From NCBI GenBank assembly GCA_964650645.1, contig CAZYUH010000001.1:639202-703201 (forward strand): a stretch of 64,000 nt of DNA. Reading direction: 5' to 3'. A program made the position numbers and the translations under genes. Below the pieces are notes generated by a model. The model was not told the origin of the DNA. It saw nothing but the letters and a program-made list of their open reading frames with translations, and made no database searches. Positions 15,204 through 46,023 of this stretch are shown here, piece after piece. Each line of letters starts with the position of its first letter. Positions within the stretch are counted from its first letter, which is position 1. This DNA is from an uncultured Candidatus Saccharibacteria bacterium (GTDB lineage: Bacteria; Patescibacteriota; Minisyncoccia; Phycocordibacterales; SBAW01).

Positions 15204-16919
15204 CTAATCCGCTACGCGATACAAGTCAACACTGGGGGTGCTGATAACTTTCTCAAGCGCCGCAGAGCCCAAAAAGGGATACGAATAGGGGTCGTCATGG
15301 GCCTCGTCGGGGGTGTATATCACGTACCTGATCCCGAGGCCCGCTAATAATCTCAGTGTTTCGTCCGGATCGGCGTCATTGTCGGTAATGGCCGCCGAAA
15401 GGCGCGCGTACCCGGGGAGGCGCGACTGCTGTCCGCCGTCGCCTACTTCCCCTATTTCGGCACTCGCACCCTGATAAATGGTACAGTCGAAATATGAAGA
15501 TGAGGTGTTGGCCGTTAATAGACGGTTGTTGAAAACCGGCGTGTAGTACAGGTGCCAAGGGAGAAATACCGCCGCACAAGCATCATCCCGCTTCAATGTA
15601 TCGTTCACCGTTGCCCACCCGTCCGGGTACCACACGGGCCGTAATTGGCCCGCCAGGCCGAAGAGCGTGGTGGGCGTATACAAGAGCGGGATGCAGCACA
15701 GCGCGGCCATAGCCAAGCGCGGGCGCTTGAAGCGGCTGGCAATGTAACCTGCGCCCAATCCTCCTACAAGCGCGTACGCGAGCACCAACACGGCGCTCCA
15801 CTTCTGCGTATCCCTGAAGCCGCTCCAGAACGGCACATGATTGAACATCCATGCGTTGGCGTTTTGGAATATGCCCGGCCCGATGCCGGAGGAGAACACG
15901 AGCGCCAGCGCGCCTGCGCCGCACAGCCACAGCACGATAAAGCGGTTGCCCCGCCTGCGCAGGCCCGCGACAACTCCCGCGCACACAACGCCCGCAAGGG
16001 CGATGCCTGACAGCGCCCAGAGCAGGCCGCTCTCTTTAGGCCAGGCAAAGTACGTGATCCAGCGCTCGTGCTCGCCCCAAAAGCCGTACAGCGCCGCTAC
16101 GTTCCCTGCCGTGCCCAGTACCGGGTCGCTGGCGGTATAAAAGGCCCGCACGTCGCCCGCGCCGAAGTCGCTCAGCGCCGTTGCGGGCGCCGCAAAGGCC
16201 GGCACGAGCCAGTACAGGCTCGCAAGCGCAAATAGCAGACCGCAGGCGCATAAGCGGCCCAGGAGCGCCCGCGCCATGCGGTACTCCCCCGCGCACAGCA
16301 TGCGCGTTACGGAGGCCAGCGCGAATACGGCAAGCAGGACGCATCCCATGACCATAATGTGGAGCGAGAACATGCCCATGCATAGGAGCCACGCGCAGGC
16401 GTGCAGGGCGTGCCGCCACGCAAGGGTCCTGTACAGGCGCGTCAGCGAGCACGCGAGGGGGAACAGGAAGGCGTACGCCATGAGCACGCCCCACTGCCCC
16501 GCCAACATCCGCTCGTATACGAACGGGTTAACGGCGAACAGCGCCGATGCGAAATAGCGCCCAGCCCGATGGTCCTCGAACGGATAGAAGCGCAGAGGCA
16601 GGTAAAAAAGCAAATAGAACAGCCCGAACAGGATGCCCTTCTGGATGACCCAGACGGGCATCCAAAAATGCAGGAGGTATATAAGGTACCTGTACGGAAA
16701 CGCCGCCGCCGAAAGCCCCTCGTATGAAGGGAACGCCGCGTGTGGCCCGAAGACCATGTCGAGCGTGAGCACATAGCCCGGTAACAGCATCTGCCAGAGC
16801 ACTACCACGGCGCCCAGCGCCGCGATAAGCGCATGCTTGTAGTACAGCGCCGCAGCGCCTGCGCACGCCTTTAATGCCAGCGCCTTTGCCGCCCACGCGT
16901 TTGCCAATAGCCTTTTCAT
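15204..16919 (-). CDS. Polytopic membrane protein, putative GT-C-fold glycosyltransferase
   Basis: ~12 TM helices followed by ~130-aa C-terminal soluble domain; start taken at MKRLLANAW (ATG 16919-16917), directly abutting a palindromic operator. Confidence 0.45.
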   Translation of the reverse strand: MKRLLANAWAAKALALKACAGAAALYYKHALIAALGAVVVLWQMLLPGYVLTLDMVFGPHAAFPSYEGLSAAAFPYRYLIYLLHFWMPVWVIQKGILFGLFYLLFYLPLRFYPFEDHRAGRYFASALFAVNPFVYERMLAGQWGVLMAYAFLFPLACSLTRLYRTLAWRHALHACAWLLCMGMFSLHIMVMGCVLLAVFALASVTRMLCAGEYRMARALLGRLCACGLLFALASLYWLVPAFAAPATALSDFGAGDVRAFYTASDPVLGTAGNVAALYGFWGEHERWITYFAWPKESGLLWALSGIALAGVVCAGVVAGLRRRGNRFIVLWLCGAGALALVFSSGIGPGIFQNANAWMFNHVPFWSGFRDTQKWSAVLVLAYALVGGLGAGYIASRFKRPRLAMAALCCIPLLYTPTTLFGLAGQLRPVWYPDGWATVNDTLKRDDACAAVFLPWHLYYTPVFNNRLLTANTSSSYFDCTIYQGASAEIGEVGDGGQQSRLPGYARLSAAITDNDADPDETLRLLAGLGIRYVIYTPDEAHDDPYSYPFLGSAALEKVISTPSVDLYRVAD

Positions 16920-17236
16920 TCTAGTTTTTTGCAAAAAGCTAGAATGGCGTGGGCGCGTGGTGTCAGCTTATGGCGCACGTTCACGCTGTCGCTGCGCTTG
17001 GCCACAAGGCCCGCCATGGCCATCTTACGCAGGTGGTCGGACGCGTTCATGTACCCTATCGAGAGCCTCTGGGAGATTTCGTCGATAGACAGCTCGGGCT
17101 CGCGCTTAAGCAGGTCCAGTATGTGCAGCCGGCGGTGGTTCGCAAAGCCCTTTACCACGCGCTCAAGCCTCCGGTACTGCGCCCCTCCCTTTTGCCCCGC
17201 TTTTCCCTCTGTTTTGCGGCCCCTCGTTTGCATCAT
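16916..17236 (-). CDS. ArsR/SmtB-family HTH transcriptional regulator
   Basis: HRRLHILDLLKREPELSIDEISQRLSIGYMNASDHLRKMAMAGLV is a typical ArsR wHTH; 106 aa. Confidence 0.7.
   Translation of the reverse strand: MMQTRGRKTEGKAGQKGGAQYRRLERVVKGFANHRRLHILDLLKREPELSIDEISQRLSIGYMNASDHLRKMAMAGLVAKRSDSVNVRHKLTPRAHAILAFCKKLE
16922..16945. promoter_or_regulatory. Palindromic operator copy 1 (TAGTTTTTTGCAAAAAGCTAGAAT), overlaps arsR 3' end and the start of the downstream membrane-protein gene
   Basis: 24-bp exact repeat of the element at 17258-17281; core TTTTTGCAAAAA is a perfect palindrome flanked by CTAG..CTAG. Confidence 0.55.
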
Positions 17237-17257
17237 GCGGATATACTATACAGTTTT

Positions 17258-17281
17258 TAGTTTTTTGCAAAAAGCTAGAAT
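17258..17281. promoter_or_regulatory. Palindromic operator copy 2, overlapping the -35 region of the arsR promoter
   Basis: Identical 24-mer; on the minus strand it is followed by TATAGT 8 nt before the arsR ATG. Confidence 0.55.
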
Positions 17282-17379: not shown

Positions 17380-17748
17380 TCAGTCGCCGGCTTCGGTTCC
17401 CTTTTCGCGCCAGAGCTCTATGAGCTGGAGGGCCACCGTCATGCACAGGAAGAAGAACGCGAACACGGCCATGTACTCGGCAAACGCGTCCTGGTTAAGC
17501 GCGAGCAGGATTGGGCATGTTACCAGGCACAAAATGGCCAGTACGCCCACGATGCGGTTGTCCAGCCGGTACAGCGCGAACGAGAAGAACATGGCCCACA
17601 GCAAGCTCGAAATGACATCGGTCGCGTAGCCAATACCAATGAACGCGGCCACGATGAACGCCGCCTTCCATTTGCGCGCGGTTATATCGCTCCAGGCTTC
17701 CTTCAGCTCCTTTGTAAACTGCCTCCATACGATGCGTAGCGTGTGCAT
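17380..17748 (-). CDS. Small membrane protein, hypothetical
   Basis: 122 aa, 3 predicted TM helices. Confidence 0.4.
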   Translation of the reverse strand: MHTLRIVWRQFTKELKEAWSDITARKWKAAFIVAAFIGIGYATDVISSLLWAMFFSFALYRLDNRIVGVLAILCLVTCPILLALNQDAFAEYMAVFAFFFLCMTVALQLIELWREKGTEAGD

Positions 17749-17751
17749 ATA

Positions 17752-20595
17752 TTAGTGTGCGCGTGAGCGATACTTGCGGCGGACATGCCCTACCCCGGCG
17801 TAGCCCAGGTAGCCCAGACACCCGGCCAGCGTCAGCCCCGATACAATGAGCCCGAGGTAAAACCAGCGCTGGGGCCAGAATTCTATCACCATTTCAATGT
17901 CATAGCTCCCGCCGGGGTTTTGGGTACAGCCCGCCAGTTTTTGGACTTCGCACAGCTCTGTCGTGTCTACGTACCACCCGTTTAGGAAGCCATTGAGCTT
18001 GTAATGGTACTCGTCTCCTACCCTGTCGGGCTTGGCAAACGGCCACCAGCTATCCAATCGCCCTTGCACTTTGGCATTGTTGAGCTCTAAGTACCACTTG
18101 TCGTGATAACTCTCGCTCATGCCCAGGAAGAACGGCGTTGTTGCACCCCTTATGTACACCAGCTTCTTGGTCGGGCTTATAAGATCAAAGGTGGTGGATG
18201 CGGGTTGCACAAGCTGAGCATCCGGCTCGCTTACTAGATAATAAGAGCTGGATATATCCGGAATCTCGACAAGTTTGAAATTATCGTAACGGTTGATATT
18301 ATTAGTTTTTACGTCCGTCTCTTTTGCATATACATACAAACTGAGAGTTGTAGCCCCTGCAGGGACTTTTATGGTACGGGTTAAAGTATGCCAGGCAGTA
18401 TCGGTTAGCGGCAGATTCTCACTATCAGATGTCTTAACTGGGTCGTTAAAGCCAATGTAATAGGAAGCGGATTTTGCATTAGAACTTTGATAGTCGAAGC
18501 TCAATAAATATGTGCTAGTTGCATTAATAGGGAGTTCTATAGAGATGCAAGCAGTATGTCGAGTTGCCTCAAGTTGTAGAGATTGAACGCCGTCTGTCTT
18601 GTTATGGGCATCCAATTTCATTCCTAAAATAGGCTTTTGGTCATAATTATGACAATCCCCAACTGCTTGCTGCCAAAAACCTCTCTCAAAAGACCCATTG
18701 GTAATTAAATTTTTAAATGTGTAATTTTTATTTGTATAAGTAAATTGGTTATCGATACCATTTAATAAAGTAGTGCTCGAATATATGGGTTCATTATCAA
18801 TAGATAGTTTGTCGAAATTATTTAATGCGTAAAGTATATTTTTATTGGCAGAGTATATGGTTGTAGTAGCAGTAATACTCGAACTTGCGGTTGATATATT
18901 TTGAAAATTGACATTCTCAAATAACTGGTCAACATATGTTGCTGAAGAGGTGGCATTAGCTTTATTGAATAAGTAGAAATAAAAACCATTATGCAGTTGA
19001 TTGTTAACAAAATTATACTTTTCATCTAGATTATTTTTAGATTCAAAAGAATACAAATAATCAAATGTAAATATATTTCGTATCGATCTTATGTTTTTAA
19101 AAATAAACAAATTTGGATCTAGATACATATTGTTGACACGTGTCCAGTTACTATCTTTTGTGAGAGCGTTTATCTGATTCTCTGATACAGGAGTTGATAT
19201 ACAGGTTATTACGTAACCGGCACTATTTAGCAACGATAACGCATCTTGAATATTATCTTCTGATATATGTTTAACTTCTATATCTTTTGAAAGAAAATGC
19301 TGATTTAAAGTAAAAAATTTTATTTGATCAAGTTCATTACATATGCCGCCATCAACCCAAATAACCATGCTGTGGTTAGGTATATTGTTTAGTGATTGAA
19401 CTAGATCAGTATCAGGTAATTTGGGTATAAGTAATTTATTATAAATTTCAGTAAGCATGAATCCACACCAACCAAAAATTATTATAGTAAGAAAAGATAA
19501 TGATATAAATTTCAACGTTCTTGACATTCTCGAAATTCCCAAACCTAGAATTATTACTGCAAGTATGGGGATATATAATTGCCACTTAAGAGGTGATCTA
19601 AAGGCCCATCCACCCGGAAGATTATTTAGAATTGATAATATTATGTTTGAACCAAAGTTATTTAATGCCAACCAATATAAAAGTAGTAATATTCCTAGAA
19701 ATAATCTTGAAAAGAAACCTTCTATATTTTTATTATTAGAGTAAAAAAATGCAATTATAAGTAAAATCTGAAAAGAAAAACCAAAAATAACAAAAATAAT
19801 CTTATACCCTGAATTATAGTAATCATAATCAGTGAGAACATCTCTAGACCAAGTAAATGTATTAACCAAACTACCCGAGTTTGCAAACCCAATAAATGAA
19901 TCAGTATTTGAAGAGTTTGCATTTATCGTAGATACTATGGAAGCTTTATTTAAAGCTTGTGTTGAATAAATGCTCAATATAAGAAAGGCACTCAACATTC
20001 CACAAATTACTAATGCTTTTATGGCACTTATTATTAGTTCTTTTCTAAAAGGATTGCTGTAGAGCCGTGTTACAAAGAAAATTGTCGCTATAAAAGTATT
20101 TACGATGAAAGTAAACGGATGAATTAATGAAACGATTAATCCAAAATAAGCTAAAATAAAGTAACGAGGGCTTTTTGTCTGAATATATTTTTTTAAAAGT
20201 ATTATTACAAAAGGCAACATTGAGGCGCCTAAAATTAATCCTATTTTCGAAATATTTGCTAGAAATATCGGGTTAATAACATAAAATAAACTCAACAAAA
20301 AACGTGTATGAATATCTATTTTTTTAAAAAAAGATAATGCAAAATATGCAGAACATGCCGCAATCACAAGCGCTAGAAATAAGTATAAATAAGATACACC
20401 AAGGTTTCCAAGAATTGGATAAAATATAAGCAAAAAAAGCCTTATTGGTAGTCGAAAAACGCCATCCAAATTAATAGCTCCATTTTGGGAAGACCAAAGA
20501 TAGAATGTTTTTAGAAAATATATCCATGCTTCAAATGGAAACCCAAAATCACCGTTAGCTAGAAATCCTAAATTAAATATATTACCGAAGTACAT
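17752..20595 (-). CDS. Large polytopic membrane protein (YfhO/GT-C-like N-terminal 13 TM region + ~450-aa extracytoplasmic domain + C-terminal TM anchor), mosaic composition
   Basis: 947 aa; N-terminal 2/3 encoded by AT-rich DNA, C-terminal third by GC-rich DNA; C-terminal domain looks like a carbohydrate-binding/jelly-roll domain. Confidence 0.5.
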   Translation of the reverse strand: MYFGNIFNLGFLANGDFGFPFEAWIYFLKTFYLWSSQNGAINLDGVFRLPIRLFLLIFYPILGNLGVSYLYLFLALVIAACSAYFALSFFKKIDIHTRFLLSLFYVINPIFLANISKIGLILGASMLPFVIILLKKYIQTKSPRYFILAYFGLIVSLIHPFTFIVNTFIATIFFVTRLYSNPFRKELIISAIKALVICGMLSAFLILSIYSTQALNKASIVSTINANSSNTDSFIGFANSGSLVNTFTWSRDVLTDYDYYNSGYKIIFVIFGFSFQILLIIAFFYSNNKNIEGFFSRLFLGILLLLYWLALNNFGSNIILSILNNLPGGWAFRSPLKWQLYIPILAVIILGLGISRMSRTLKFISLSFLTIIIFGWCGFMLTEIYNKLLIPKLPDTDLVQSLNNIPNHSMVIWVDGGICNELDQIKFFTLNQHFLSKDIEVKHISEDNIQDALSLLNSAGYVITCISTPVSENQINALTKDSNWTRVNNMYLDPNLFIFKNIRSIRNIFTFDYLYSFESKNNLDEKYNFVNNQLHNGFYFYLFNKANATSSATYVDQLFENVNFQNISTASSSITATTTIYSANKNILYALNNFDKLSIDNEPIYSSTTLLNGIDNQFTYTNKNYTFKNLITNGSFERGFWQQAVGDCHNYDQKPILGMKLDAHNKTDGVQSLQLEATRHTACISIELPINATSTYLLSFDYQSSNAKSASYYIGFNDPVKTSDSENLPLTDTAWHTLTRTIKVPAGATTLSLYVYAKETDVKTNNINRYDNFKLVEIPDISSSYYLVSEPDAQLVQPASTTFDLISPTKKLVYIRGATTPFFLGMSESYHDKWYLELNNAKVQGRLDSWWPFAKPDRVGDEYHYKLNGFLNGWYVDTTELCEVQKLAGCTQNPGGSYDIEMVIEFWPQRWFYLGLIVSGLTLAGCLGYLGYAGVGHVRRKYRSRAH

Positions 20596-20597
20596 AC

Positions 20598-21665
20598 CTA
20601 TTTATTGTTAAAAGATATGAGGTTCTGAATATAAATTTTAGATATATCTAGGATCGCCTCATCCTTTTGACCCAGAGATTTCAAAAGCTGTGTACATTTA
20701 TTATCATAAGAAATAGGGATATATTTGACACCACTTAAGGCAGCTAGGAGCATCCCATGATACTGAGGCAAGATACAAACAAGACTTTCCTTATTGTTTC
20801 GTAAAAATAAATAAAAACTAATTGGATTGCCGCTAAAATTTTTTATTATAATTCGATCAGTATTTAATAAGTTTGCGTGTAATTTTTGGAACTCAAGCAC
20901 ATCTGAATACATACTATTTTTAAAACTTGGATGCAGAGCTAGAAGTAAAAAATTATCAGTGCTTTTATATTGAATAAACTTTTCAATTACTGCAACGTAA
21001 TTAGAAATTTCAGTTGTACTATTACCTCGATAACTAACAATATAATTAATTTGTTTAGGATCTATTGGAAACAGTGATTTAGCCTCGACCTTATAAGCTT
21101 CGAGGTTCAAATTATTTAACAAAAAGGCAATATCTTGAGTTAGAACAACTTTCCGTTTAAAACCTAAACCAGAAAATGAATAGTATGTTTCTTCATCTCT
21201 TGCATAAATTTTATTTGACGCAAGTCCAGAAATAAATGCACCGAAGTGGCCAATCATTCCTGTCGACTTATAATATCCAACGCCAATAAGATACACTTCT
21301 TTTCTAAGCACGAATCGCGCTGCAAGTAATAAAAAGGAAAGTATTAAAACTTTTAAATTGAAATCCAGCCCCCAGAGTCCACCTCCTCCGATTATAGTTC
21401 TTTTGCTTACAAATAAAGCCTTTAGGACTCCCATTATCGAAGGCTTAATCAAACGAGCTTCTTCAAACGAATGGTGAGAATCGGAATAAATTTCACTATT
21501 TAAATAAATAAATTGTGTATTTTTTATATTTCTTGATTTGAAATAATTTAGCAAAACTTCTAGAATTAGCTCATCTCCCATATTTCCACCACCATAAAAA
21601 CCAAACAAAAAAGAATTGGAAAAATCAAGCTTATCTAATTCTAATTTTAATTTTCTTGTTTCCAT
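20598..21665 (-). CDS. Polysaccharide pyruvyl transferase family protein
   Basis: FYGGGNMGDELILEVLL ... IIGGGGLW motifs typical of PF04230 (CsaB/WcaK-like). Confidence 0.7.
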   Translation of the reverse strand: METRKLKLELDKLDFSNSFLFGFYGGGNMGDELILEVLLNYFKSRNIKNTQFIYLNSEIYSDSHHSFEEARLIKPSIMGVLKALFVSKRTIIGGGGLWGLDFNLKVLILSFLLLAARFVLRKEVYLIGVGYYKSTGMIGHFGAFISGLASNKIYARDEETYYSFSGLGFKRKVVLTQDIAFLLNNLNLEAYKVEAKSLFPIDPKQINYIVSYRGNSTTEISNYVAVIEKFIQYKSTDNFLLLALHPSFKNSMYSDVLEFQKLHANLLNTDRIIIKNFSGNPISFYLFLRNNKESLVCILPQYHGMLLAALSGVKYIPISYDNKCTQLLKSLGQKDEAILDISKIYIQNLISFNNK

Positions 21666-21666
21666 A

Positions 21667-22518
21667 TTAACAACTTACTCTTGCCCACAGTTTCGTTTTT
21701 TTTATAAAATTAAAAAAATAATTTTTTTGTTCCGCATTAATAAAACTGTCTAGTAAAAAAGAAAGCAAAGTATATGCATACATTCCAATCTTGTTGGGCG
21801 GCGAGTATTTTCTTAAATACTCCATCCGTGACTGAAACATTAATTTTGTTTTGATTTTAAAATACTGATCCGTACTATTTTTATGTTTTCTGTATTTATA
21901 TAAATATTCAGGCAAATTGGCTCCTTGTTTACCAGCCATTATAAATCTTAAAAACATATCTACATCTTCAATGTAATCTTTGTCATCACGATACGCTCCG
22001 ATTTCAAGAACATCACTTTTTCTAAACATTATTGTTGGATGAAGAAAAGGGTAATGAAAAAAATATAACTTAGATATAACATGTGGTTCAATTGGAAACT
22101 CAATGGAAGCAAGCTCTATATTGCTTTCATTAATAATAATCGCAAAAGTGCCAACAAGGGATAAGGCAGGATTCTTGGATAAATATAGATATTGTTTTTC
22201 GAGTCTGTCAGGTGTCGAGATATCGTCCCCATCCATACGCGCAATTATTTCACCCCTAGCTATACTTAGCCCTTTATTTAAATTTTTTGCGATTCCTATA
22301 CGTTCAGTATTTTTTATATATATAATTCGCGGGTCAAATAAATAACGTTTTATAATTTTTTCAGACTCATCAGTGGATGCATCATCAATAATAATGAATT
22401 CAAAATCAGAGTACGATTGATTCAAAATACTTTCAATTGATTCACGTAAAAAAGCCTCGGCATTTCTAAAAGGCATTACTACAGATATTTTAGGTTGTTT
22501 AGTCATATGATTTTGCAA
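21667..22518 (-). CDS. Glycosyltransferase family 2
   Basis: ISVVMPFRN...IIIDDASTDES...MDGDDIS (DxD) GT-A signature; true start may be the Met at 22506. Confidence 0.75.
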   Translation of the reverse strand: MQNHMTKQPKISVVMPFRNAEAFLRESIESILNQSYSDFEFIIIDDASTDESEKIIKRYLFDPRIIYIKNTERIGIAKNLNKGLSIARGEIIARMDGDDISTPDRLEKQYLYLSKNPALSLVGTFAIIINESNIELASIEFPIEPHVISKLYFFHYPFLHPTIMFRKSDVLEIGAYRDDKDYIEDVDMFLRFIMAGKQGANLPEYLYKYRKHKNSTDQYFKIKTKLMFQSRMEYLRKYSPPNKIGMYAYTLLSFLLDSFINAEQKNYFFNFIKKTKLWARVSC

Positions 22519-23326
22519 CTAGTATACCTATTCCACCAACTCCAAACTCACAAGTTTTCATAAAAAGCATGCCGACTCCAATGAAAAGATTTTTAAAAAG
22601 TTTAATCGGGCGCGAGAAGAAAAGGATGTAACGGTTAAAAATCCCCGCCGTTCTCTTGCTGGAATTGATAGCACCTTTGGAGTGGCAGAGATACGCCTTT
22701 GCCTGCTTGGCGTAATAATACTTTTTCTTAAGGGTTTTGCCGAGACTTATCTTCCCTTCGTTGTGATAAATTGCGTCGCTGATTCGCGCGATCTTCCCTA
22801 GCGCCTCTGCCCTGTCAGACAAGTCCCAGTCTTCGCCGGAAATCAGGGCTTCGTTATATCCCCCGACCTTATCAAAAGTTGCCTTGCTAAAGAATCGAGC
22901 GGCTTCAATGGCGTCTACCCCGACATAAAAGCTCCGCTCAAGCTTTTTGCACTGCGCCCAGAACCCCTCGCCAAACGACTCTTCGGGGATGATAATACCC
23001 GCCGCGTCCGCGCTTGAGGCCATTACCCGCACGCAGCTTCCGATAACGCTCTTGGAAACCACCATGTCGCTGTCAATAAACACGACATGCTCCCCTGACG
23101 CCTGCGCCGCGCCAAAATTGCGCTGTGCGCTGCGCTCTGGGCCTTTGGTGAATACCTTGTCCGTAAAGCGCCGCGCGATTGCCTGGGTGTCGTCGGCACT
23201 GCTGTTGTCTACCACGATTAGCTCGATGTTCTTGTATGACTGCTCCTTAATCGAGCGCAAGCACGCCTCTAAAAACTCCGCAGAGTTCTTTGTGGGCACG
23301 ATGACTGATACGAGCGGGTTAGGCAT
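22499..23326 (-). CDS. Glycosyltransferase family 2
   Basis: VSVIVPTKNSAEFL...LIVVDNSSADDT...IDSDM; start at MPNPLVSV (internal Met of ORF 22499..23398); overlaps downstream GT2 by 20 nt. Confidence 0.75.
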   Translation of the reverse strand: MPNPLVSVIVPTKNSAEFLEACLRSIKEQSYKNIELIVVDNSSADDTQAIARRFTDKVFTKGPERSAQRNFGAAQASGEHVVFIDSDMVVSKSVIGSCVRVMASSADAAGIIIPEESFGEGFWAQCKKLERSFYVGVDAIEAARFFSKATFDKVGGYNEALISGEDWDLSDRAEALGKIARISDAIYHNEGKISLGKTLKKKYYYAKQAKAYLCHSKGAINSSKRTAGIFNRYILFFSRPIKLFKNLFIGVGMLFMKTCEFGVGGIGILVAKSYD

Positions 23327-24425
23327 GGGCAAGAATGTCTTTGAACTGCGCGTAGCTTTTCTCGAAAGTAATGCCCTTGCTCCACTCCCAGGCGGCATGG
23401 CGCATGTGCTCGTAGCGCGGCTGGTCTTGTAGGAGCGCGGCCATGGACTCTGCCAGCGCCTCGGGGGTGTTTTTGGCGGTTACAAGCCCCGTGACGCCGT
23501 TTTGCACGCTGTCGCGCAGGCCGTCGCAATTATACACAACCGCCGGGGTGCCCTGGCTGTTTGCTTCGGTCACGACAAGCCCCCACCCTTCCTTGACTGA
23601 CGCGACCGGCAAGATATGCGACTTTTGGAGCAATTCTACTTTTTTATCTCCGCTTACCTTCCCCAGGCACTCGATGCTGTCTTTGTAGGGCGATTGCTGT
23701 ATGTGCCGGGCGACGCGCGCGGCGTATGCGCCGTCGCCTGCGCCCGCGATAATGAGCCTTGCAGTAGGCACCGAGCGCTTGAGCATCTCGAAGGCCCGCA
23801 CGATATGCGCGGTGCGCTTCATGGGCCGTATCGCGCCCAGCGCGAGGATGGTCGGGTGGGGATACTTTTGTATGCTAAGGCTTGCGACCGGCGTGAGCTC
23901 TATCCCTTCGCTTATGATGCTGATGTGCTCGGGCTTAAAGCCGTGGCGCATGAGGTCTTTTTTGGTGCTTTCTGATACGGTAACGACTTCCTGCCCGCCG
24001 AGCGCCAGCACGCGCAGGTAGAGGGGCTCCAGCAGGTAGCCAACAAGCGACGCCGGAGCCCATAGCTGATAGAACCATATTTCCCTGCATAATTGATGAA
24101 CGAACAGAATAACCCTTTGTTTTGCGTATAGTTTGGCGAAAAACGGGATGGTGTTTACCTCGTCTATGACGACATCGGGCCAGCCCTGCAGGTGCTTTTT
24201 GTAGTAGCGGTACGCCCGCCAGTACACGCTGTAGCGCCCGCCGAGCCTGATTATAGTGAAGCCGTTGCGCTCTTCCCTTTCAGCGCTGCCCTCGAATCCG
24301 CCCACTATGAAGCGCACCTCGTGGCTGTCTTTGGCAAGGCGCTTTGCCAGCTCCTCGTTGACCACCTCGGCGCCGCCCGCCAGTGGATGGCGCATGTCTT
24401 TCCATGTCAGCCAGAGTATCTTCAT
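23319..24425 (-). CDS. Glycosyltransferase family 4 (GT-B)
   Basis: MKILWLTW...GGAEV N-terminus and C-terminal EGWGLVVTEANSQGTPAVV motif; ATGA overlap with upstream gene at 24422-24425. Confidence 0.75.
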   Translation of the reverse strand: MKILWLTWKDMRHPLAGGAEVVNEELAKRLAKDSHEVRFIVGGFEGSAEREERNGFTIIRLGGRYSVYWRAYRYYKKHLQGWPDVVIDEVNTIPFFAKLYAKQRVILFVHQLCREIWFYQLWAPASLVGYLLEPLYLRVLALGGQEVVTVSESTKKDLMRHGFKPEHISIISEGIELTPVASLSIQKYPHPTILALGAIRPMKRTAHIVRAFEMLKRSVPTARLIIAGAGDGAYAARVARHIQQSPYKDSIECLGKVSGDKKVELLQKSHILPVASVKEGWGLVVTEANSQGTPAVVYNCDGLRDSVQNGVTGLVTAKNTPEALAESMAALLQDQPRYEHMRHAAWEWSKGITFEKSYAQFKDILAHA

Positions 24426-25372
24426 GAGTCGCGCTTGATGGTGCGGCGCACGATGTAGAGCGGCCGGGCGGCCACCTCGGTGCGTATAGAGCCCACGTAG
24501 AGGCCTATGATGCCCTGCGCGGCGAGCACGATGCCCACCAAGAATACGATGAGCACCGCGAGCTGGGCCGAGCCCGAAACGTGCCAATTGAGCGCGTCGT
24601 TGAGCATGTACCGCTCGACCAGTATGACCGCCCCAAGGACGCCGCTGAGCGCGCTTATGGTAACGCCCAGGTACCCGGCAAGCCTAAGCGGCAGGAGCGT
24701 GTGCGACAGCAGGGAGCTTATGGCGAGGCGCACCAGCTTTATGGCGGAGTACTGCGCCTGGCCGCGCGCGCGGGCGGGCGCCACGAACGGCACCGACGCG
24801 CGTCGGAAGCCCAGCCAGTTGATGAGCGAGCGCGTCATGCGCTCGCGCTCGTGGAAGGCGCAGTAGGCCCGCACCACCGCGCGGTCGAGCAGGCGGAAAT
24901 CGGTGTCGCCGTGGCTGAAGTCGGTGTCCGATATGCGCGCCATAAGGCGGTAAAACAGCAAGGAGCCCCACTTCTTTATGAAGCCCTCGCCCGTGTTGCC
25001 CGTGCGGGTGCCCACGACGACCTCGGCGCCCTTTTCCCACTCGCGCACCATGCCCGGGATGAGCTGCGGCGGATGCTGGAGGTCGGCGTCCATGAGGATG
25101 ACCGCGTCGCCTTTTGCGGCGCACAGCCCGGCGGTGGTGGCCATTTCCTTGCCGAAGTTGCGGCTGAACTCGATGCAGGACACCGCGGGGTCGCTCTGCA
25201 CGAGGCGCTCTATGGCGGCCACCGTGGCATCGGTACTGCCGTCGTCTATAAAGATGACGGAGCGGGCGTAGCCCGCGAGCTCTTTCTCCCACACGGCGCA
25301 CAGCGCGGCGTGCACCAGCGGGACGTTCTCTTCTTCGTTATGGACGGGTATTAGTACGGTGAGTGCCTTCAT
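24422..25372 (-). CDS. Polyprenol-phosphate glycosyltransferase (GT2, GtrB/ArnC/DPM1-like) with two C-terminal TM helices
   Basis: LTVLIPVHNEEENV...FIDDGSTDAT...MDADLQHPP; C-terminal hydrophobic pair. Confidence 0.75.
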   Translation of the reverse strand: MKALTVLIPVHNEEENVPLVHAALCAVWEKELAGYARSVIFIDDGSTDATVAAIERLVQSDPAVSCIEFSRNFGKEMATTAGLCAAKGDAVILMDADLQHPPQLIPGMVREWEKGAEVVVGTRTGNTGEGFIKKWGSLLFYRLMARISDTDFSHGDTDFRLLDRAVVRAYCAFHERERMTRSLINWLGFRRASVPFVAPARARGQAQYSAIKLVRLAISSLLSHTLLPLRLAGYLGVTISALSGVLGAVILVERYMLNDALNWHVSGSAQLAVLIVFLVGIVLAAQGIIGLYVGSIRTEVAARPLYIVRRTIKRDS

Positions 25373-26682
25373 GTCAGTGCGGCGGGCGCTGGAGCGGGAG
25401 CCGTGCGGCAAAACAGCAGGTAATTGAGCGCCATGAGCGCCAGGAGCAGCGCCGAGGACGCCGCGAGCATGCCCGTGACGGCCCCGAGCGTCGCGTGATT
25501 GAGCGCGATGAGCCCGACTTCCGCGGCGATGCCCGCCGCGAGGAAGTACAGGAAGGAAGTATTGCGCGCCGCAACGAAATAATTGATGAAGGCGGTCGAG
25601 AGCGCTATGCAGCCCATGGCAATCCCGAACAGTCCCAGGTGCGGGGCCACCCCCAGGTAGCGCGCCCCGAAGAGCGCCGAGAGCACGAGCCCGGGTACCA
25701 GCGAGAACAGCCCGACTGCGGCGGCAGAGGCGGCAAGGATAGCCGCGAGCGAGAGGCCCAAAATGCGCCGCCCGCCGCCCTTTGCGCCCGCCTCGGCGGC
25801 CGACGCCAGCGGGAGCAGGACGGTGATGAACGCGCCCACGCCGTAGACGAGGATCTTGCCGATGGTCGAGAGCGCGCCGTACTCGCCAGCCGCCTCGGCA
25901 GAGAGGTAGTGCTTGGCCAGCAGTACGTCAATGTTGGAAAGGAGCGCCATGAGGAGCGTGGTGGCGAGAATGGTCATGAACAGGGCCTTAAGCGGGCCGA
26001 GCGCGAAGGGCTCCGCCTGCGGCGCGGCGTGCCTTTTGAATATCTTGCGCGTCGCCAGGTAGCCGTAGCCCCACGAGGCAAGCGAGGCCGCCACCAGCCC
26101 CAGCATGACGCCCGCAACCGAGAACCCGGCGTACACGAGCGCCACCGAGAGCGCGAGCTTTAATACGGCGCTGAGCGCGTTCTGCTTGGCGAGCAGGAAG
26201 AACTCCTGCAGCCCCTGCAGGGTGCCCGACTGGAGCGAGCTTGCGAGCGCGACCGGGATGAGCAGGCTGAATATGATGAGCGGGACGACTTCGAGCCGCA
26301 GGAAGCCCGCGAGCGCGGGCACGAGGCACACGAACGCCGCCCACAGCGCGAGCGAGGCGGCAAGCGCGTTCTTCCTTAGGTGCACGAACAGCGCGCGCAC
26401 CGCGCCCGGGCCTTCCGCCCCGCGAAAGGCGGCCTCGCGGGTCATGAGCATGGTAAGCGCCGTTGCCGGCACCGAAACAATAAGCATGAGGCTGAAGAGC
26501 GCGGTCACCTCGCCGAACTCTGCCACGCCCAGCATGCGGCTTATGACGATGGTGAAGACGTAGTTGAGCGCGTTAACCACGAACGAGCCCGCGAAGATTA
26601 CCGAGCTTGAGAAGAAGAACCCGGTATCGGCATAGTGCCGCGCAAGCGCAAGGAGCCTCGCCTTTGAAGGGTTCGCGCCCAT
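25369..26682 (-). CDS. Polysaccharide flippase (Wzx / MOP superfamily)
   Basis: 437 aa, ~12-14 TM helices, position at head of glycosyltransferase cluster. Confidence 0.65.
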   Translation of the reverse strand: MGANPSKARLLALARHYADTGFFFSSSVIFAGSFVVNALNYVFTIVISRMLGVAEFGEVTALFSLMLIVSVPATALTMLMTREAAFRGAEGPGAVRALFVHLRKNALAASLALWAAFVCLVPALAGFLRLEVVPLIIFSLLIPVALASSLQSGTLQGLQEFFLLAKQNALSAVLKLALSVALVYAGFSVAGVMLGLVAASLASWGYGYLATRKIFKRHAAPQAEPFALGPLKALFMTILATTLLMALLSNIDVLLAKHYLSAEAAGEYGALSTIGKILVYGVGAFITVLLPLASAAEAGAKGGGRRILGLSLAAILAASAAAVGLFSLVPGLVLSALFGARYLGVAPHLGLFGIAMGCIALSTAFINYFVAARNTSFLYFLAAGIAAEVGLIALNHATLGAVTGMLAASSALLLALMALNYLLFCRTAPAPAPAALT

Positions 26683-27452: not shown

Positions 27453-28478
27453 TTATTCCTCGCCCATCTTCACGACCGGCCCGCGCCTGGACGACTGAAT
27501 GTCCTCGGGACGCTTGGGCATGACATGCAGGGCCGGCAGATCGGCCGCGTCGAGGTTCGGCATGGGCACGGACGATTTTTCCGGGGATTCGGGCACCAGC
27601 TCGACTGGCGCGGCGGGCTTTTGCGGTTGCGCCGGGGGCGGCGTTGCGGGAGCCGGCGCAGGGTGCGGCTTCGGGGGCTGGGGTGCGGATTCGGGTGCAG
27701 GCAGATTCAGCTCGGCTACCATAGGCAAAAGGCTGTGGTTGGGGTGGATGTCTACCCTTGATAGGGGTACAGGCATTTTTTGCGAGGGTACAGGTACCCC
27801 CGGAAGGGGCACAGGCGTATTTTTCTGCGCCGCAGGAGCCGGCGGCACTGCGGGCGCGGGCGTTGGCGCCGCGGGAGGAAAGGGGTTCGGCGACAGGTGC
27901 GCCGGCACGGGCCTGAGGCCCGCAAGCGCAGGAACCGACGCGGGCCAGGCGGCCGCCTTCCCTGCGGGCGCGTCGTGGCGGCGCATTATCCACACGAACG
28001 CGGCCCACACGGCCCCGAAGGCGGCCAGCCACCCGGAATAGATCCCGAACAGGAGCCCCCACCCCACGGCGGGCGCCATGGCGTGGACTATGAAGAGCGC
28101 GTACCAGTTGGCGCCCTCGAAGCCTTCGACCGCGTCGCGCTTTATGCCGGTAACGTCAAGCTCGACGAAATGGAAGGCCGCGAGGAGCGCGATGAGCAGC
28201 CACTTGAAGAGGAACGCGGGCGCCGCGAGCACTCCCGGCGTCCCGCTCTGGAAGTGCACGAGTATGGCCGCGCCGCCCGAGACGATGATGGCCGCAAGCG
28301 CGACGGCCCGTATGGAGCGCGCGGCGCGCACGAAGCCGAATACCGTCTCGCTCTTGTGCGCGTGCAGGGAAAGCAGGTGGCCGACCAGCGTGACGGTAAG
28401 CGCCCCTACCCCCGCGATAATGCCCCACTCTTGCGTTAAAGACGCCAAAAGCGATAGGAGTTCCCCCGCCAATACCAT
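27453..28478 (-). CDS. Membrane protein with Pro/Ala-rich C-terminal tail, hypothetical
   Basis: N-terminal 6 TM helices then PAPAVPPAPAAQ...PPKPHPAPAPATPPPAQPQKP. Confidence 0.4.
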   Translation of the reverse strand: MVLAGELLSLLASLTQEWGIIAGVGALTVTLVGHLLSLHAHKSETVFGFVRAARSIRAVALAAIIVSGGAAILVHFQSGTPGVLAAPAFLFKWLLIALLAAFHFVELDVTGIKRDAVEGFEGANWYALFIVHAMAPAVGWGLLFGIYSGWLAAFGAVWAAFVWIMRRHDAPAGKAAAWPASVPALAGLRPVPAHLSPNPFPPAAPTPAPAVPPAPAAQKNTPVPLPGVPVPSQKMPVPLSRVDIHPNHSLLPMVAELNLPAPESAPQPPKPHPAPAPATPPPAQPQKPAAPVELVPESPEKSSVPMPNLDAADLPALHVMPKRPEDIQSSRRGPVVKMGEE

Positions 28479-40218: not shown

Positions 40219-40790
40219 ACGGAGCCGAAGAGGTAGACGAAGGTGAATATGAATATCCAGATGATGTCGAGGAAGTGCCAGAAGAGCCCGAGGCACGCGA
40301 GCTTGCGCACTGTCCCCTCCTGAAGGCCCCGCAGGGCGACGTGCGCCATGGCGACAAGCATCCACACGCTCCCCGCCGCCACGTGCAGGCCGTGCGTTCC
40401 CAGAAGCGCGAAGAAAGAAGAGAGGAAGGCGCTGCGGTCGGGGCCGTGGCCCTCGGCAATGAGCTTGGCGAACTCGGCGGACTCCATGCCGAGGAACCCG
40501 AGTCCGAGGCACAGCGTCGCCGCGAGCGCCAGGAGCGTAAGGCCTTTTCTGCCCGCATGCGCGGCCAAAAGCGCCAGCCCCATCGCGAAGCTCGACGTTA
40601 GGAGGAGCATCGTCTCGGCGAGCGCGTACGGCAGGTCGACGATGTCTCCCAGCGAGGGGGCGCCGAAGGTCTCCGCGCGCAGGACCGCGAAGGTCGCGAA
40701 CAGCGCCGCGAACAGCACGCAGTCGCTCATGAGGTACACCCAGAAGCCGAACGTGGCCTTGTCAGTCATGTGCGCGTCGTGCCGTGTCAT
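40215..40790 (-). CDS. cyoC: Cytochrome o ubiquinol oxidase subunit III
   Basis: [27 protein letters not shown] matches the CyoC N-terminal region; ATGA overlap with cyoB stop. Confidence 0.85.
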
Positions 40791-42703: not shown

Positions 42704-42705
42704 GG

Positions 42706-43548
42706 TTAATGGTGGTGCTCCTTCATGCCCGCGTCCATAGCATGGGCATTCTGCCCGCCCGCGTGCATGCGCGCGTCCATAAACTGCATCATAACAGCAT
42801 TAAACAGATCGGGCTCTACCGCGGCGAACGACGCCTCCGGCGCCGACGCGCCCGGCTTGGCAAGCTCCTTGTACGCGCTAAACGAGAGCGTGCTCGACGC
42901 GGCCCTCGTGCGGGCGACCCAGTCATCGAACTCCGCCTCGGGGACGGCGCGCGCGGCGAACTTCATCGAAGAGAAGCCGTCGCCGCTGTAGTTGGCCGAA
43001 ACGCCCGCGTACGTGCCGGGCTCGTTTGCCACCAAATTGAGCTCGGTGGCCATGCCGGTCATGGCGTATATCTGGCCGCCCAGCTGGGGTATCCAGAACG
43101 AGTTCATCGGCGCGTCCGCGGTAATGCTGAACTCAACCGGCCTGTCGACCGGCATCATGACGTAGTTCACCGTCGCCACCTCCTGCTCCGGATAAATGAA
43201 GAGCCATTTCCAGTCGAGCGCGACGACCTGCACTTGGAGCGCCGGGCCGCCCTCGAGCGCGCGGGTCGGGTCGAGCCGGTGCGTACTGCCCCACGTGAGC
43301 GCGCCCAGGACGAGTATTATTTCAAGCGGTATCACCCACCACACCAGTTCTTCGAGCCTGCCGTGCTCCCACTCGGGCGTGTATTCCGCCTTCTTGTTGG
43401 AAGCGCGGTACCTGTACGCGAAGAAGAACAGGAGGAAGTAGACCGGCACCGCCACTATGAGCATGAACTCGACCGCGTGGATCATGAGCGCGCGCTCGGC
43501 CACGCCGATGGCGCCCTTGGGATCGAGGACGGTGAACAGGCTCCACAT
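42706..43548 (-). CDS. cyoA: Cytochrome o ubiquinol oxidase subunit II
   Basis: LDPKG...[18 protein letters not shown]...[10 protein letters not shown] matches CyoA; lacks the CuA ligands as expected for quinol oxidases. Confidence 0.85.
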
Positions 43549-43627
43549 GGGTACATAATACCCTTGAATTTGAGCATTTCCCGGGGCTATTTATCAGACC
43601 ACAAATGTTTTATTAAGGAATTACTTT

Positions 43628-44068
43628 CTATTGCTCTTCGGGGCTTCTTGGCGCCTTACCTGTAAATATATAAGCTAACGCAACGCCAGCCAGCGGGATT
43701 GCACCCGCAATCAAACCTGCGCCGTCCTTTCCTTGCGCAATCAAATTAGCACCTTGCCATATACCAAAAAGTACAATAACCACAGCGGCAATTTGACCTG
43801 AAAGTCTATTAAAGCCATCGAACCACAGCAATCGACTCTCCATCCTCTGTCTGTGATTAGATTGGCCTACTGCCATTTCAACTATTGTTCTCCCACACCC
43901 AGGAGAAACTCTATCGTACTCGGCAAGCATCTCAGGAGGAGGTAAGGGGCCTTGGAAAATATTTCCAACTACCCTGGGGGCATGAGAAGGTATTGGCTGC
44001 CCTTCAACTGAAACCCGGTCGTCTTTTTTAGAGACGTCCTTATTTGCCCCGCTGGTGTCCTTCGCCAT
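43628..44068 (-). CDS. DUF2335-family membrane protein
   Basis: PPPEMLAEYDRVSPGCGRTIVEMAVGQSNHRQRMESR then two TM helices; encoded in a locally AT-rich islet. Confidence 0.55.
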   Translation of the reverse strand: MAKDTSGANKDVSKKDDRVSVEGQPIPSHAPRVVGNIFQGPLPPPEMLAEYDRVSPGCGRTIVEMAVGQSNHRQRMESRLLWFDGFNRLSGQIAAVVIVLFGIWQGANLIAQGKDGAGLIAGAIPLAGVALAYIFTGKAPRSPEEQ

Positions 44069-45969: not shown

Positions 45970-46023
45970 TGATTCGCCCTCTACTGAAGAGGGGCGCATT
46001 TTAACTTATTTTTATAAATTGTC

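Follow-up and report, generated by a model that had tools for sequence, protein, structure and literature searches.

A Patescibacteria surface-glycan locus with a conserved frame and a strain-variable low-GC cassette that reaches into a GT-C gene

How should a surface-glycan locus be understood when its flanks are shared by sister strains and its centre is not? In the present work, we examine such a locus in a window of 64,000 nucleotides (the whole stretch of DNA analyzed). We will argue that it is probably, although by no means certainly, a serotype-like glycan locus exchanged by recombination, with a conserved frame, a variable cassette and the pathway proposed below. If this is true, strains would differ in their surface glycotypes in the way that O-antigen or capsule serotypes differ.

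In this high-GC, Parcubacteria-type member of the Patescibacteria, the locus is a surface-glycan module of 11 genes arranged like an operon (Table 1). An earlier note on this DNA had read it as a surface-glycan locus, and the Pfam and NCBIfam profile matches agree, identifying a flippase of the Wzx type, a GT2 of the polyprenol-phosphate type and soluble GTs, together with a pyruvyl transferase that matches PF04230, one of the families that the note had proposed to search. The genes lie where the note placed them, all on the minus strand. The tight packing it described also stands, with overlaps of 4, 4 and 8 nt followed along the operon by gaps of 22, 1, 2 and 3 nt, so that its claim of an overlap at every junction does not. 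These junctions, and protein sizes of 316, 368, 275 and 269 aa, come from genes called independently on a Logan contig of identical sequence; the longest open reading frames overstate three genes, whose true starts give shorter proteins. Since each open reading frame of the locus has hundreds of homologues, they are not chance frames. Profile searches of the locus detect no Wzy, Wzz or ligase family, in line with the note, and a priming phosphoglycosyl transferase is absent from the module in all lineages examined and from the 20 other window genes that were scanned.

Table 1. Coordinates of the features of the locus in the window.
Feature	Position	Strand	Size	Remarks
Wzx-like MOP-family flippase	25369-26682	-	437 aa	PF01943 E 1.7e-11; conserved frame
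Polyprenyl-phosphate glycosyltransferase-type GT2 (GtrB/PgfS/ArnC/DPM1-like)	24422-25372	-	316 aa	PF00535 E 1.8e-30; conserved frame
GT4 glycosyltransferase	23319-24425	-	368 aa	PF00534 and PF13439; conserved frame
GT2 (GT2a)	22499-23326	-	275 aa	PF00535 E 8.4e-26
Low-GC cassette (type A)	18601-22532			GT2b, pyruvyl transferase and the part of the 947-aa gene for residues 1 to ~665
GT2 (GT2b), EpsE-like	21667-22476	-	269 aa from ATG	PF00535 E 1.6e-37; cassette-specific
Polysaccharide pyruvyl transferase, CsaB-like	20598-21665	-	355 aa	PF04230 61.1 bits (cut-off 25.3); cassette-specific
Large membrane protein	17752-20595	-	947 aa	CBM_4_9-like domain
Its GT-C transmembrane catalytic domain (predicted)	19420-20595	-	aa 1-392	Hypervariable between strains
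Its remaining part	17752-19419	-	aa 393-947	Extracytoplasmic alpha/beta and beta domains, CBM jelly-roll, beta-sandwich, TM anchor
Its CBM jelly-roll	18244-18714		aa 628-784
Its beta-sandwich			aa 785-907
Its C-terminal TM anchor			aa 908-946
Small membrane protein	17380-17748	-	122 aa	3-4 TM helices; called in sister-strain contigs
Palindromic motif, copy 1	17255-17281		27 nt	Upstream of regulator gene; candidate operator
MarR/ArsR-type winged-helix regulator	16916-17236	-	106 aa	PF01047 E 1.8e-7
Palindromic motif, copy 2	16919-16945		27 nt	Directly upstream of the 571-aa GT-C start codon, inside the regulator's 3' end
Second GT-C-fold protein (MmpA/Rv0226c-like and AftD-like)	15204-16919	-	571 aa	Conserved frame

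Ten of the 11 module genes recur across Patescibacteria, the regulator being specific to the window's lineage, and both an Adlerbacteria MAG and distant Patescibacteria of low GC keep the gene order. The conserved frame comprises the flippase, the GtrB/PgfS-like GT2, the GT4, a GT2, the C-terminal CBM/beta-sandwich/TM anchor of the large GT-C, the 122-aa protein and the 571-aa GT-C. The flippase has 95-99% amino-acid identity across sister strains and belongs to a 13-sequence cluster at ≥90% identity. Its gene overlaps by 4 nt that of the GtrB/PgfS-like GT2, which has 49-51% identity in distant Patescibacteria, always with wzx adjoining. This GT2 scores 221 bits against the NCBIfam PgfS profile and 155 bits against ArnC, both below the equivalog cut-offs, and carries a C-terminal TM hairpin (hydrophobic segments aa 231-257 and 263-296). 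For the GT4, identity to the sister strains is 87-89%, and it falls to 60-62% for distant Patescibacteria of low GC. The GC drop from 63% to 30%, and with it the main feature of the locus, a strain-variable cassette bounded inside genes, had escaped the earlier note, as had the 122-aa gene and the membership of the 571-aa gene in the module.

We now consider the low-GC cassette. Its mean GC is 0.297, compared to 0.626 ± 0.045 outside (z = -7.3), its GC3 is about 0.2 versus 0.86, and the shifts in composition fall inside intact open reading frames. In blastn comparisons with sister-strain loci, the alignment ends at 22533 on the left and picks up again at 18600 on the right. Sister strains whose flanks are 93-94% identical carry two other cassettes at the same site, each of about 30% GC and with intact frames. 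Their glycosyltransferases differ from those of type A, and so does the subfamily of their GT-C catalytic domain (12-27% identity), which is joined in frame to the shared C-terminal CBM and anchor (87-88% identity). Conspecific strains thus hold at least three unrelated cassettes here. The same junctions recur in independent assemblies and samples, and identity along the right flank varies like a patchwork between 72 and 100%, which indicates repeated exchanges. The cassettes appear to be swapped by recombination, one probable breakpoint being at the 3' end of GT2a or close to it and the other within the gene of the large GT-C; such swaps would generate chimeric enzymes.

GT2a is kept in cassette types A and B and replaced in type C; its amino-acid identity is 85% in L006 and 43% in L011. 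Its GC declines across the 3' third, GC3 going from about 0.7 to 0.28 toward the 3' end. GT2b, which would be 283 aa long with its start at the upstream TTG (position 22518), matches the NCBIfam EpsE profile at 164 bits, below the cut-off, with a GC3 of 0.24; its best non-self homologues are 49-54% identical, the named ones being from Patescibacteria. The pyruvyl transferase reaches 75.5 bits against CsaB (TIGR03609, cut-off 213), forms a singleton cluster, as do the cassette proteins looked up, and is 36-42% identical to the pyruvyl transferases that L003, L012 and L014 carry in this place. No close donor of the cassette proteins is found among 5.8 billion clusters, the best having 45-54% amino-acid identity and the named relatives being Patescibacteria. 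The closest full-length relatives sit in Patescibacteria contigs of uniform 34% GC, and the Adlerbacteria MAG has the same gene with the same low-to-high GC gradient.

For the 947-aa protein, the structure prediction that the earlier note had called for supports a GT-C fold and an extracytoplasmic carbohydrate-binding domain, AftD being the nearest solved structure. The protein falls outside the YfhO family, whose paradigm the note had favored, as it has no PF09586 match and just one of 45 relatives matches YfhO. The predicted GT-C domain opens directly at the conserved GDFxFPF Asp loop, without the TM1 that canonically precedes it in other alleles. The window's allele has every family-invariant residue, while the L006 allele has lost the invariant TM residues; the N-terminal domain of L006 is related only remotely to the family of the window's protein (E 3.7e-5) and more closely to that of the 571-aa protein (E 2.9e-10). 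The families of the 947-aa and 571-aa proteins are homologous to each other, the two proteins being paralogues. D16 of the 947-aa protein, nearly invariant in its family, is at the position equivalent to D54 of the 571-aa family, which is invariant and lies in the first loop after TM1. Over residues 393-947, conservation between strains rises toward the C-terminus, and a comparison of alleles by domain gives 56% identity for the CBM and 12-27% for the membrane catalytic domain. The C-terminal module recurs in proteins of about 1,240 aa with other N-terminal regions.

The 571-aa protein is also predicted to be GT-C-like, as the note had suggested, with AftD again its top solved match. Its one curated match is the MmpA family (NF053599), aligned over nearly the full profile at 177.7 bits (cut-off 210). 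It is not a unit apart, since it forms a Patescibacteria-wide module with the large GT-C and the 122-aa membrane protein. The gene for the latter always follows the large GT-C gene; homologues in this position in L002, L003, L012 and L014 share 52-59% identity over the C-terminal 55-58 aa. The 122-aa protein matches no Pfam family at E ≤ 1, GtrA included, and has no GtrA or SMR-family signal. The regulator, which scores 46.6 bits against ArsR/SmtB (NF033788, cut-off 55), is a lineage-specific insertion between the module genes: L012 and L014 lack it there, their small frame overlapping a gene of about 551 aa. The 20-nt core of the palindromic motif has just two sites in the 64 kb, with 0 expected by chance, and both copies are identical in L006, L007, L010 and L011.

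In the pathway that we propose, the glycan would be built up at the cytoplasmic face of the membrane on a polyprenyl-phosphate carrier, with the conserved enzymes acting first and the cassette enzymes last. Wzx would then move the lipid-linked glycan outward, and the variable large GT-C would transfer it on the outer side of the membrane, where the conserved CBM and anchor of this enzyme would presumably hold common acceptor or partner proteins. The conserved 571-aa GT-C may perform a strain-invariant extracytoplasmic step. We propose that the catalytic domain co-varies with the cassette glycosyltransferases because it must handle the strain-specific lipid-linked glycan. The order of these steps, the nature of the lipid-linked donor and recombination as the exchange mechanism are what we infer. 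Against the pathway count the lack of a priming transferase, so that the lipid anchor may be P- or PP-linked, and the lack of TM1 before the Asp loop in the window's allele. The sequence is compatible with the protein or teichoic-acid-like glycosylation of the note as well as with a polysaccharide. The conserved GtrB-like GT2 fits a Und-P-monosaccharide donor equally well, which alone leaves the variable catalytic domain unexplained, and the hypervariability of the TM domain could come from cassette linkage or from diversifying selection on exposed loops, instead of donor specificity.

Another option is a three-component glycosylation of the Gtr, CsbB-YfhO or Pgf type, which we consider possible but doubtful. 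The conserved GT2 would make a polyprenyl-phosphate monosaccharide, flipped by the 122-aa protein or Wzx, and each GT-C would add this single sugar to a polymer or protein, while the soluble GTs and pyruvyl transferase would build a separate Und-PP-linked backbone, primed by a transferase whose gene lies elsewhere. The variable GT-C domain would be the type-specific part, as Gtr* in Shigella, recognizing different acceptor positions. The GT2 is indeed closest to PgfS and ArnC and has the TM hairpin, the two GT-C proteins adjoin a small multi-TM protein, and the module lacks a priming transferase; moreover, the serotype-specific component of Gtr systems is a GT-C (PMC11127046), and Pgf systems combine the PgfS GT2 with two polytopic membrane proteins (PMC5856776). 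However, the 122-aa protein gives neither flippase-family signal, every lineage has a dedicated flippase of the Wzx type whose gene overlaps that of the GT2 by 4 nt, and variable acceptor recognition predicts the CBM to be the most variable part, which is the opposite of the domain identities above. One or both GT-C-fold proteins might instead have no catalytic role and serve as scaffolds or in the handling of lipids, as MmpA/Rv0226c has been proposed to do in trehalose-mycolate export, but we find this rather unlikely. The sole curated match of the 571-aa protein points in this direction, MmpA having been proposed as a possible membrane anchor for a protein complex, without a recognizable catalytic motif (PMC8698533). 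That match is below its cut-off, though, and the genomic context is wholly glycan biosynthesis. Mycolate synthesis is not known from Patescibacteria, and the conserved aspartates D54 and D16 correspond in position to the essential D41 of AftD.

The cassette might also be explained without a standing polymorphic system, as one recent import from a low-GC donor, possibly of non-functional or transient DNA. The extreme contrast in GC3, the singleton clusters and the uniformly 34%-GC contigs of the nearest relatives are in its favor, but we judge it quite improbable: three low-GC cassettes with intact frames share one site between nearly identical flanks, the best donor is distant, the right-flank patchwork implies repeated exchanges, the Adlerbacteria MAG repeats the GC gradient, and the window's allele retains its family-invariant residues. 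An assembly chimera, with a low-GC fragment of another organism misjoined into a high-GC contig, would account for a GC change that is abrupt at genomic scale in metagenome-derived data. It is nevertheless highly improbable, as the GT2a and 947-aa frames cross both transitions unbroken, the low-GC N-terminal and high-GC C-terminal parts make one confidently folded protein of family-typical architecture, a 754-kb NCBI contig and a Logan contig present in four samples have identical junctions, and other assemblies have equivalent junctions with other cassettes.

Returning to the serotype-like reading, we compare the locus with known systems. Mycobacterial arabinofuranosyltransferase D (AftD; GT-C; PDB 6W98, 6WBX; PF11847) resembles the 947-aa protein in its N-terminal GT-C membrane domain with an early conserved Asp (D41), its large extracytoplasmic CBM region and its return to the membrane. 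The sequence identity is only about 10-15%, however, and PF11847 does not match the 947-aa protein, with weak matches in 13 of 45 relatives. AftD has three CBMs instead of one, a TM1 before the Asp loop, and TM12-16 with an ACP-binding bundle where the 947-aa protein has a single TM helix. It also differs in phylum and genomic context, decaprenyl-phospho-arabinose genes not being seen here. MmpA/Rv0226c/NCgl2761, the curated match of the 571-aa protein, is reportedly homologous in part to the N-terminal, membrane-embedded part of AftD (PMC8698533), but it acts in Corynebacterineae in the export of acetyl-trehalose monomycolate, and no counterpart of that pathway is seen at this locus. Archaeal Agl N-glycosylation (AglJ/AglD Dol-P GT2, soluble GTs, the Wzx-like flippase AglR, and the GT-C proteins AglB and AglS) matches the component list, in architecture only. 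In that comparison the polyprenyl-phosphate GT2, which matches AglJ weakly (E 2.9e-6), would be a possible initiator; STT3/AglB family membership was not found for the locus proteins.

The GtrA/GtrB/Gtr*, CsbB-GtcA-YfhO and PgfS-PgfM1-PgfM2 systems share with the locus a GtrB/PgfS-like GT2 with a TM hairpin and GT-C enzymes, the GT-C being the variable, type-specific part in Gtr systems (PMC11127046, PMC5836110, PMC8035078, PMC5856776). Unlike them, the locus has a Wzx/MOP flippase and no GtrA/GtcA-family one, places three or four soluble GTs, along with a pyruvyl transferase, within the same operon, and exchanges the catalytic half of the GT-C and not the whole gene; its large GT-C also falls outside the YfhO family.

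O-antigen, capsule and lactococcal cwps loci, and the HVR-type glycosylation islands of streamlined free-living bacteria such as SAR11, have conserved flanks and a low-GC, variable GT center that is swapped between strains by recombination. The present locus shares the flanks, the center and the strain-level replacement. It differs from them in lacking Wzy, Wzz, a ligase and a priming transferase, in its very large GC contrast of 33 percentage points, in its host with a Patescibacteria genome of about 0.75 Mb, and in a recombination boundary that lies inside an enzyme gene and would give domain-chimeric GT-Cs.

The seven genes of the surface-sugar locus are co-directional, as the earlier note had proposed, and lie on the minus strand; profile searches now assign them to families: a Wzx-type flippase, a GtrB/PgfS-like GT2, one GT4, two further GT2s (GT2a and GT2b), a pyruvyl transferase and a 947-aa membrane protein, called the large GT-C here (see table). 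The tight packing described in that note is also found, with overlaps of 4, 4 and 8 nt followed by gaps of 22, 1, 2 and 3 nt in an independent gene call from an identical Logan contig (L001, 4 samples), which also shortens the three GT2s and the GT4 to the lengths given in the table. Profile searches detected no Wzy, Wzz or ligase family in the locus, just as had been stated. The initiating phosphoglycosyl transferase (PGT), the Wzy polymerase and the chain-length regulator of a Wzx/Wzy pathway were not found among the module genes of the window and of three distant Patescibacteria contigs (L003, L012 and L014), nor in 20 other window genes that were scanned.

Features of the locus and of the surrounding window, with positions in the window
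Feature	Position	Strand	Assignment and remarks
Surface-sugar locus	17752-26682	minus	seven genes
Wzx-type flippase		minus	PF01943, 44.5 bits against a cut-off of 28.2
GT2(316)	24422-25372	minus	316 aa; matches PF00535; best NCBIfam PgfS (221 bits), then ArnC (155 bits), neither reaching its equivalog cut-off
GT4(368)	23319-24425	minus	368 aa
GT2a	22499-23326	minus	275 aa
GT2b	21667-22476	minus	269 aa
Pyruvyl transferase		minus	PF04230, 61.1 bits against a cut-off of 25.3; CsaB-like, TIGR03609 75.5 bits against an equivalog cut-off of 213
Large GT-C	17752-20595	minus	947 aa; sole Pfam signal a sub-threshold CBM_4_9 at aa 628-758
Cassette A (low GC)	18601-22532		GT2b, pyruvyl transferase, residues 1 to ~665 of the large GT-C
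Palindrome copies	16919-16945, 17255-17281		27 nt
Second GT-C	15204-16919	minus	571 aa
DUF4082 protein	10359-13202	plus	947 aa; DUF4082, fn3, C-terminal bacterial SH3
LeuRS	6364-9195	minus	NUDIX match at aa 384-513 straight after the editing-domain match at aa 221-371
341-aa protein	27453-28478	minus	N-terminal multi-TM region, long Pro/Ala-rich C-terminal tail; no Pfam match
Haem-copper oxidase subunits I and II	40787-43548	minus	COX1; COX2 with COX_ARM motif, quinol-oxidase type
Second-lowest GC patch of the window	43500-46000		GC 0.45-0.48 at 43.5-44.5 kb

Downstream of the locus come a 122-aa gene that had been overlooked, a MarR/ArsR-type regulator and a 571-aa membrane protein, the second GT-C. 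With 3-4 TM helices, the conserved 122-aa product is a small membrane protein that matches neither GtrA nor any other Pfam family at E ≤ 1. An Rfam scan of the window returned tRNAs only; hits of a promoter scan merely track AT-richness, and terminator-like hits are fewer than expected. The surrounding genes, including those for DUF5671, ATP synthase, the NUDIX-bearing LeuRS and the quinol oxidase, fit a small streamlined genome. The haem-copper oxidase subunits are thus encoded in an apparent Patescibacteria genome, although this group is usually described as lacking respiratory chains. The second-lowest GC patch of the window adjoins a gene for a 484-aa GT2 (GC 0.56) with hydrophobic stretches on either side of its GT2 domain; this protein may be a membrane synthase, and it could be another imported surface-glycan gene product.

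The fold of the large GT-C was modelled with AlphaFold from a 45-sequence alignment (pLDDT 88.6, pTM 0.86). From the N-terminus, the model passes from a helical membrane domain (aa 23-389) through an alpha/beta domain and beta domains to a jelly-roll (CBM, aa 628-784), which is followed by a beta-sandwich and a single TM helix (908-946). Its polytopic membrane domain can be superimposed on solved GT-C enzymes, and the top Foldseek match is mycobacterial AftD (E 3.8e-13). The assignment of this protein to the GT-C fold in the earlier note is thus borne out, as is the reading of its neighbours as surface-sugar genes, but the YfhO label is not: at E ≤ 1 there is no match to PF09586, and only 1 of 45 relatives has one (E 2.9e-6). 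PF11847 (GT-C_AftD) does not match the protein either and is weak in 13 of the 45 relatives (best E 0.003). Sequence-profile searches of the PDB with both GT-C families gave weak CBM or chance matches and did not reach AftD, so that this link needs fold comparison. The published architecture of AftD comprises 16 TM helices, three CBMs and, at the C-terminus, an ACP-binding four-helix bundle (10.1101/2019.12.22.885152), whereas our model has one CBM, additional beta domains and one C-terminal TM helix. The DUF4082 protein of equal length encoded elsewhere in the window was considered as a paralogue and rejected, the two proteins having no similarity and the same length by coincidence; the DUF4082 protein could be located at the cell surface and is a candidate target of glycosylation.

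The sole curated match of the second GT-C is MmpA (NF053599), at 177.7 bits against 210 and over profile positions 3-498 of 543, which makes it a relative and not an equivalog. MmpA/Rv0226c is reportedly partly homologous to the N-terminal part of AftD (PMC8698533). Neither GT-C family falls within any curated family, and the two are homologous to each other (hhalign probability 95.8%, E 6.8e-9, 281 columns). Both have an early Asp in the predicted first extracytoplasmic loop, namely D54, invariant in LDMVFGP right after TM1 of the 571-aa family, and D16, near-invariant in GDFxFPF of the 947-aa family. Other motifs in common are NP(I/F), a conserved His and W.FR...KW. The essential residues of AftD include D41 (10.1101/2019.12.22.885152), which occupies the equivalent early position; any catalytic role of D16 and D54 is putative. 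AftD and MmpA are the nearest characterised relatives of the two proteins.

Homologues of the large GT-C have ~920-990 aa and occur in Saccharimonadales, Adlerbacteria, Gracilibacteria and other Patescibacteria; an exhaustive profile search gave 654 representative clusters at E ≤ 1e-30, and a reference-genome scan four loci only. For the second family, 223 matches were obtained. The same gene order is present in the distant contigs L003, L012 and L014, which have a uniform GC of 34%: Wzx, GT2(316), an optional NTP-transferase, GT4, an optional GT2 or methyltransferase, pyruvyl transferase, large GT-C, small membrane protein and a GT-C of ~551 aa. Relative to the window proteins, the identities on these contigs are 49-51% for the GT2, 60-62% for the GT4, 36-42% for the pyruvyl transferase, 44-54% for the large GT-C, 52-59% for the small protein and 34% for the second GT-C. 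The closest second GT-C (54%) is found in an Adlerbacteria MAG (L002, PLCJ01000003.1; GC 47-50%), in which the large gene likewise goes from low to high GC, 33% to ~50%, at L002 1-2400. A low-GC N-terminal half of the large GT-C may therefore be a recurring feature of Patescibacteria with higher GC.

The regulator gene is missing at this position in L012 and L014, which indicates a lineage-specific insertion. A 27-nt palindrome, TTCTAGTTTTTTGCAAAAAGCTAGAAT, has exactly two copies in the window, with none expected by chance, one lying upstream of the regulator gene, the second directly upstream of the start codon of the second GT-C. Both copies are identical in 4 of 4 sister-strain loci covering the regulator. 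They form a plausible candidate operator pair, in which case the regulator would control itself and the second GT-C; alternatively, they are possibly RNA hairpins.

It is important to point out that the centre of the locus differs sharply in composition from its surroundings. At 18600-22500 the GC content is 29.7%, compared with a window mean of 62.6% (sd 4.5% in 500-bp windows; z = -7.3). The boundaries lie inside genes. Along the large GT-C gene, GC3 is ~0.2 over codons 1-640, ~0.37 at 640-790 and ~0.70 at 800-947, and in GT2a it drops from ~0.7 to 0.28 towards the 3' end; both frames run unbroken across the transitions. The exact 947-aa protein is present in a 754-kb NCBI contig and in the Logan contig. 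Neither an artefact nor a single import accounts for the island. Profile searches found no integrase or transposase in the locus, the repeats flanking the cassette are AT-rich chance matches with no meaningful direct or inverted ones among them, and 6 kb separate the cassette from the closest tRNA gene. In the donor search, the large GT-C and GT2b had no relative above 54% identity beyond their own strain.

The proteins of the high-GC flanks cluster with many others at ≥90% identity, while the cassette proteins that were checked are singletons. Contigs of near-identical strains, retrieved through the flank-protein clusters, have a common frame, consisting on one side of the 341-aa protein, a quinone reductase, Wzx, GT2(316), GT4(368) and GT2a, and on the other of the 122-aa protein, the MarR-type regulator and the 571-aa protein. 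The 341-aa protein is thus conserved beside the locus in sister strains. Between these flanks, three cassettes, all of ~30% GC, were found: cassette A of the window; cassette B in L006, L007, L008 and L010, with two GT4-type enzymes and a 987-aa protein; and cassette C in L011, with a distinct GT2a (43-45% identity), a methyltransferase, a GT4 and a 998-aa protein. By blastn against L006, the identity is 94% from 30000 to 22533, nothing aligns over 18601-22532, and the match resumes at ~80% over 18600-17378 and 93.7% further out. In 60-nt windows, the right flank is a patchwork of 48-70% beside the cassette, followed by alternating blocks of 72% and 100%; this pattern is unlike in each strain pair, which fits repeated recombination.

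The large gene of L011 was considered as broken, with a 289-aa remnant in the automatic call, and this was ruled out by tblastn and frame translation, which established an intact 998-aa ORF (L011 8135-11131). The automatic call had placed a 289-aa fragment and a spurious opposite-strand ORF within this low-GC DNA. Gene callers can thus fragment genes in compositionally aberrant islands, and such islands in high-GC genomes can pass as pseudogenes.

The exchange does not extend over the whole large GT-C. Between the window and L006 alleles, the identity is 27% over aa 1-100, 12% over 101-316, 19% over 317-392, 13% over 393-480 and 22% over 481-627, compared with 56% over the CBM (628-784), 87% over 785-907 and 88% over the C-terminal TM segment (908-947). 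The window TM domain has a median identity of 36-38% to family members of other organisms. The L006 allele is without most family-invariant TM residues (N108S, P109T, K117Q, H159Y, P160D, G329F and W330N) and retains D16, R333, K337 and every C-terminal invariant; D16 is kept in the L011 allele as well. The N-terminal 420 residues of the L006 allele are remote from the window family (hhalign 71%, E 3.7e-5) and nearer to that of the 571-aa paralogue (96.8%, E 2.9e-10). In the L006 and L011 alleles a canonical TM1 precedes the Asp loop, at which the whole window family begins. On the basis of the identity by region, the invariant residues and the hhalign placement, conspecific strains carry GT-C catalytic domains of different subfamilies, joined in frame to one constant module of CBM and anchor. 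Dozens of representatives of ~1,220-1,290 aa (P0426-P0498) match with their own C-terminus only the 335-residue module (profile ~612-947), which points to a larger architecture class with common CBM, beta-sandwich and TM anchor. Since unrelated catalytic domains are here fused in frame to a constant module, this natural domain swap could help to show how membrane and soluble domains share GT-C specificity between them.

We now consider what the locus might make. In the pathway that we propose, the conserved enzymes would build the glycan on a polyprenyl-phosphate carrier and those of the cassette would complete it, the lipid-linked product would be flipped by Wzx, and the large GT-C would then process it outside the membrane. 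The analysis establishes which components are present, how they fold, how they are conserved and that the cassettes are polymorphic. That the large GT-C would handle the strain-specific lipid-linked glycan is argued indirectly: its membrane catalytic domain varies together with the GTs of the cassette, the GtrB-like GT2, which would supply a monosaccharide donor, is 94-96% conserved between strains, and the CBM is comparatively conserved. The C-terminus of that GT2 has two hydrophobic segments (a TM hairpin), as in the GtrB/CsbB/PgfS type. Together with the Wzx flippase, this adjacent GT2 would fit the use of a polyprenyl-phosphate-linked sugar donor by the GT-Cs outside the membrane. The main rival is a three-component system of the Gtr, YfhO or Pgf style, with one sugar added per GT-C, in which the small flippase of GtrA/GtcA or SMR type might correspond to the 122-aa membrane protein; we consider this rival viable but less likely.

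As no priming PGT is present in the module of any lineage, the proposed pathway may start from a polyprenyl monophosphate, as in archaeal Agl-like systems, or the priming gene may lie elsewhere. The furthest-reaching form of the proposal, that the AftD-like GT-C with its exchangeable domain is a glycan-specific transferase or polymerase in a polyprenyl-monophosphate pathway needing no Wzy, ligase or PGT, strikes us as unlikely. If true, archaeal Agl-type glycosylation would have a bacterial counterpart that is widespread in Patescibacteria, and swaps of catalytic domains onto the fixed CBM and anchor would create episymbiont serotypes that set host or phage specificity.

Patescibacteria (CPR) are ultrasmall bacteria, most of them episymbionts, and their surface is thought to mediate host attachment and phage exposure; to our knowledge, their envelope glycobiology is almost unknown. 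With a module recurrent across the phylum, the locus is a candidate for the main surface-glycan system, and the wholesale replacement of cassettes between conspecific strains ("glycotypes") implies that the surface is under strong diversifying selection.

A variable low-GC centre between conserved flanks is classical in O-antigen, capsule and lactococcal cwps loci and in the hypervariable islands of streamlined bacteria. AftD, Emb and GT136 are known examples of GT-C enzymes that carry CBMs (PMC11127046), and Gtr systems of type-specific GT-Cs. Our literature search found no treatment of GT-C enzymes in Patescibacteria. New compared to these systems are the pairing of two uncharacterised GT-C families in a phylum-wide Patescibacteria module, the GC contrast of 33 points, and the swapping of a GT-C's catalytic half alone, with the C-terminal module kept fixed.
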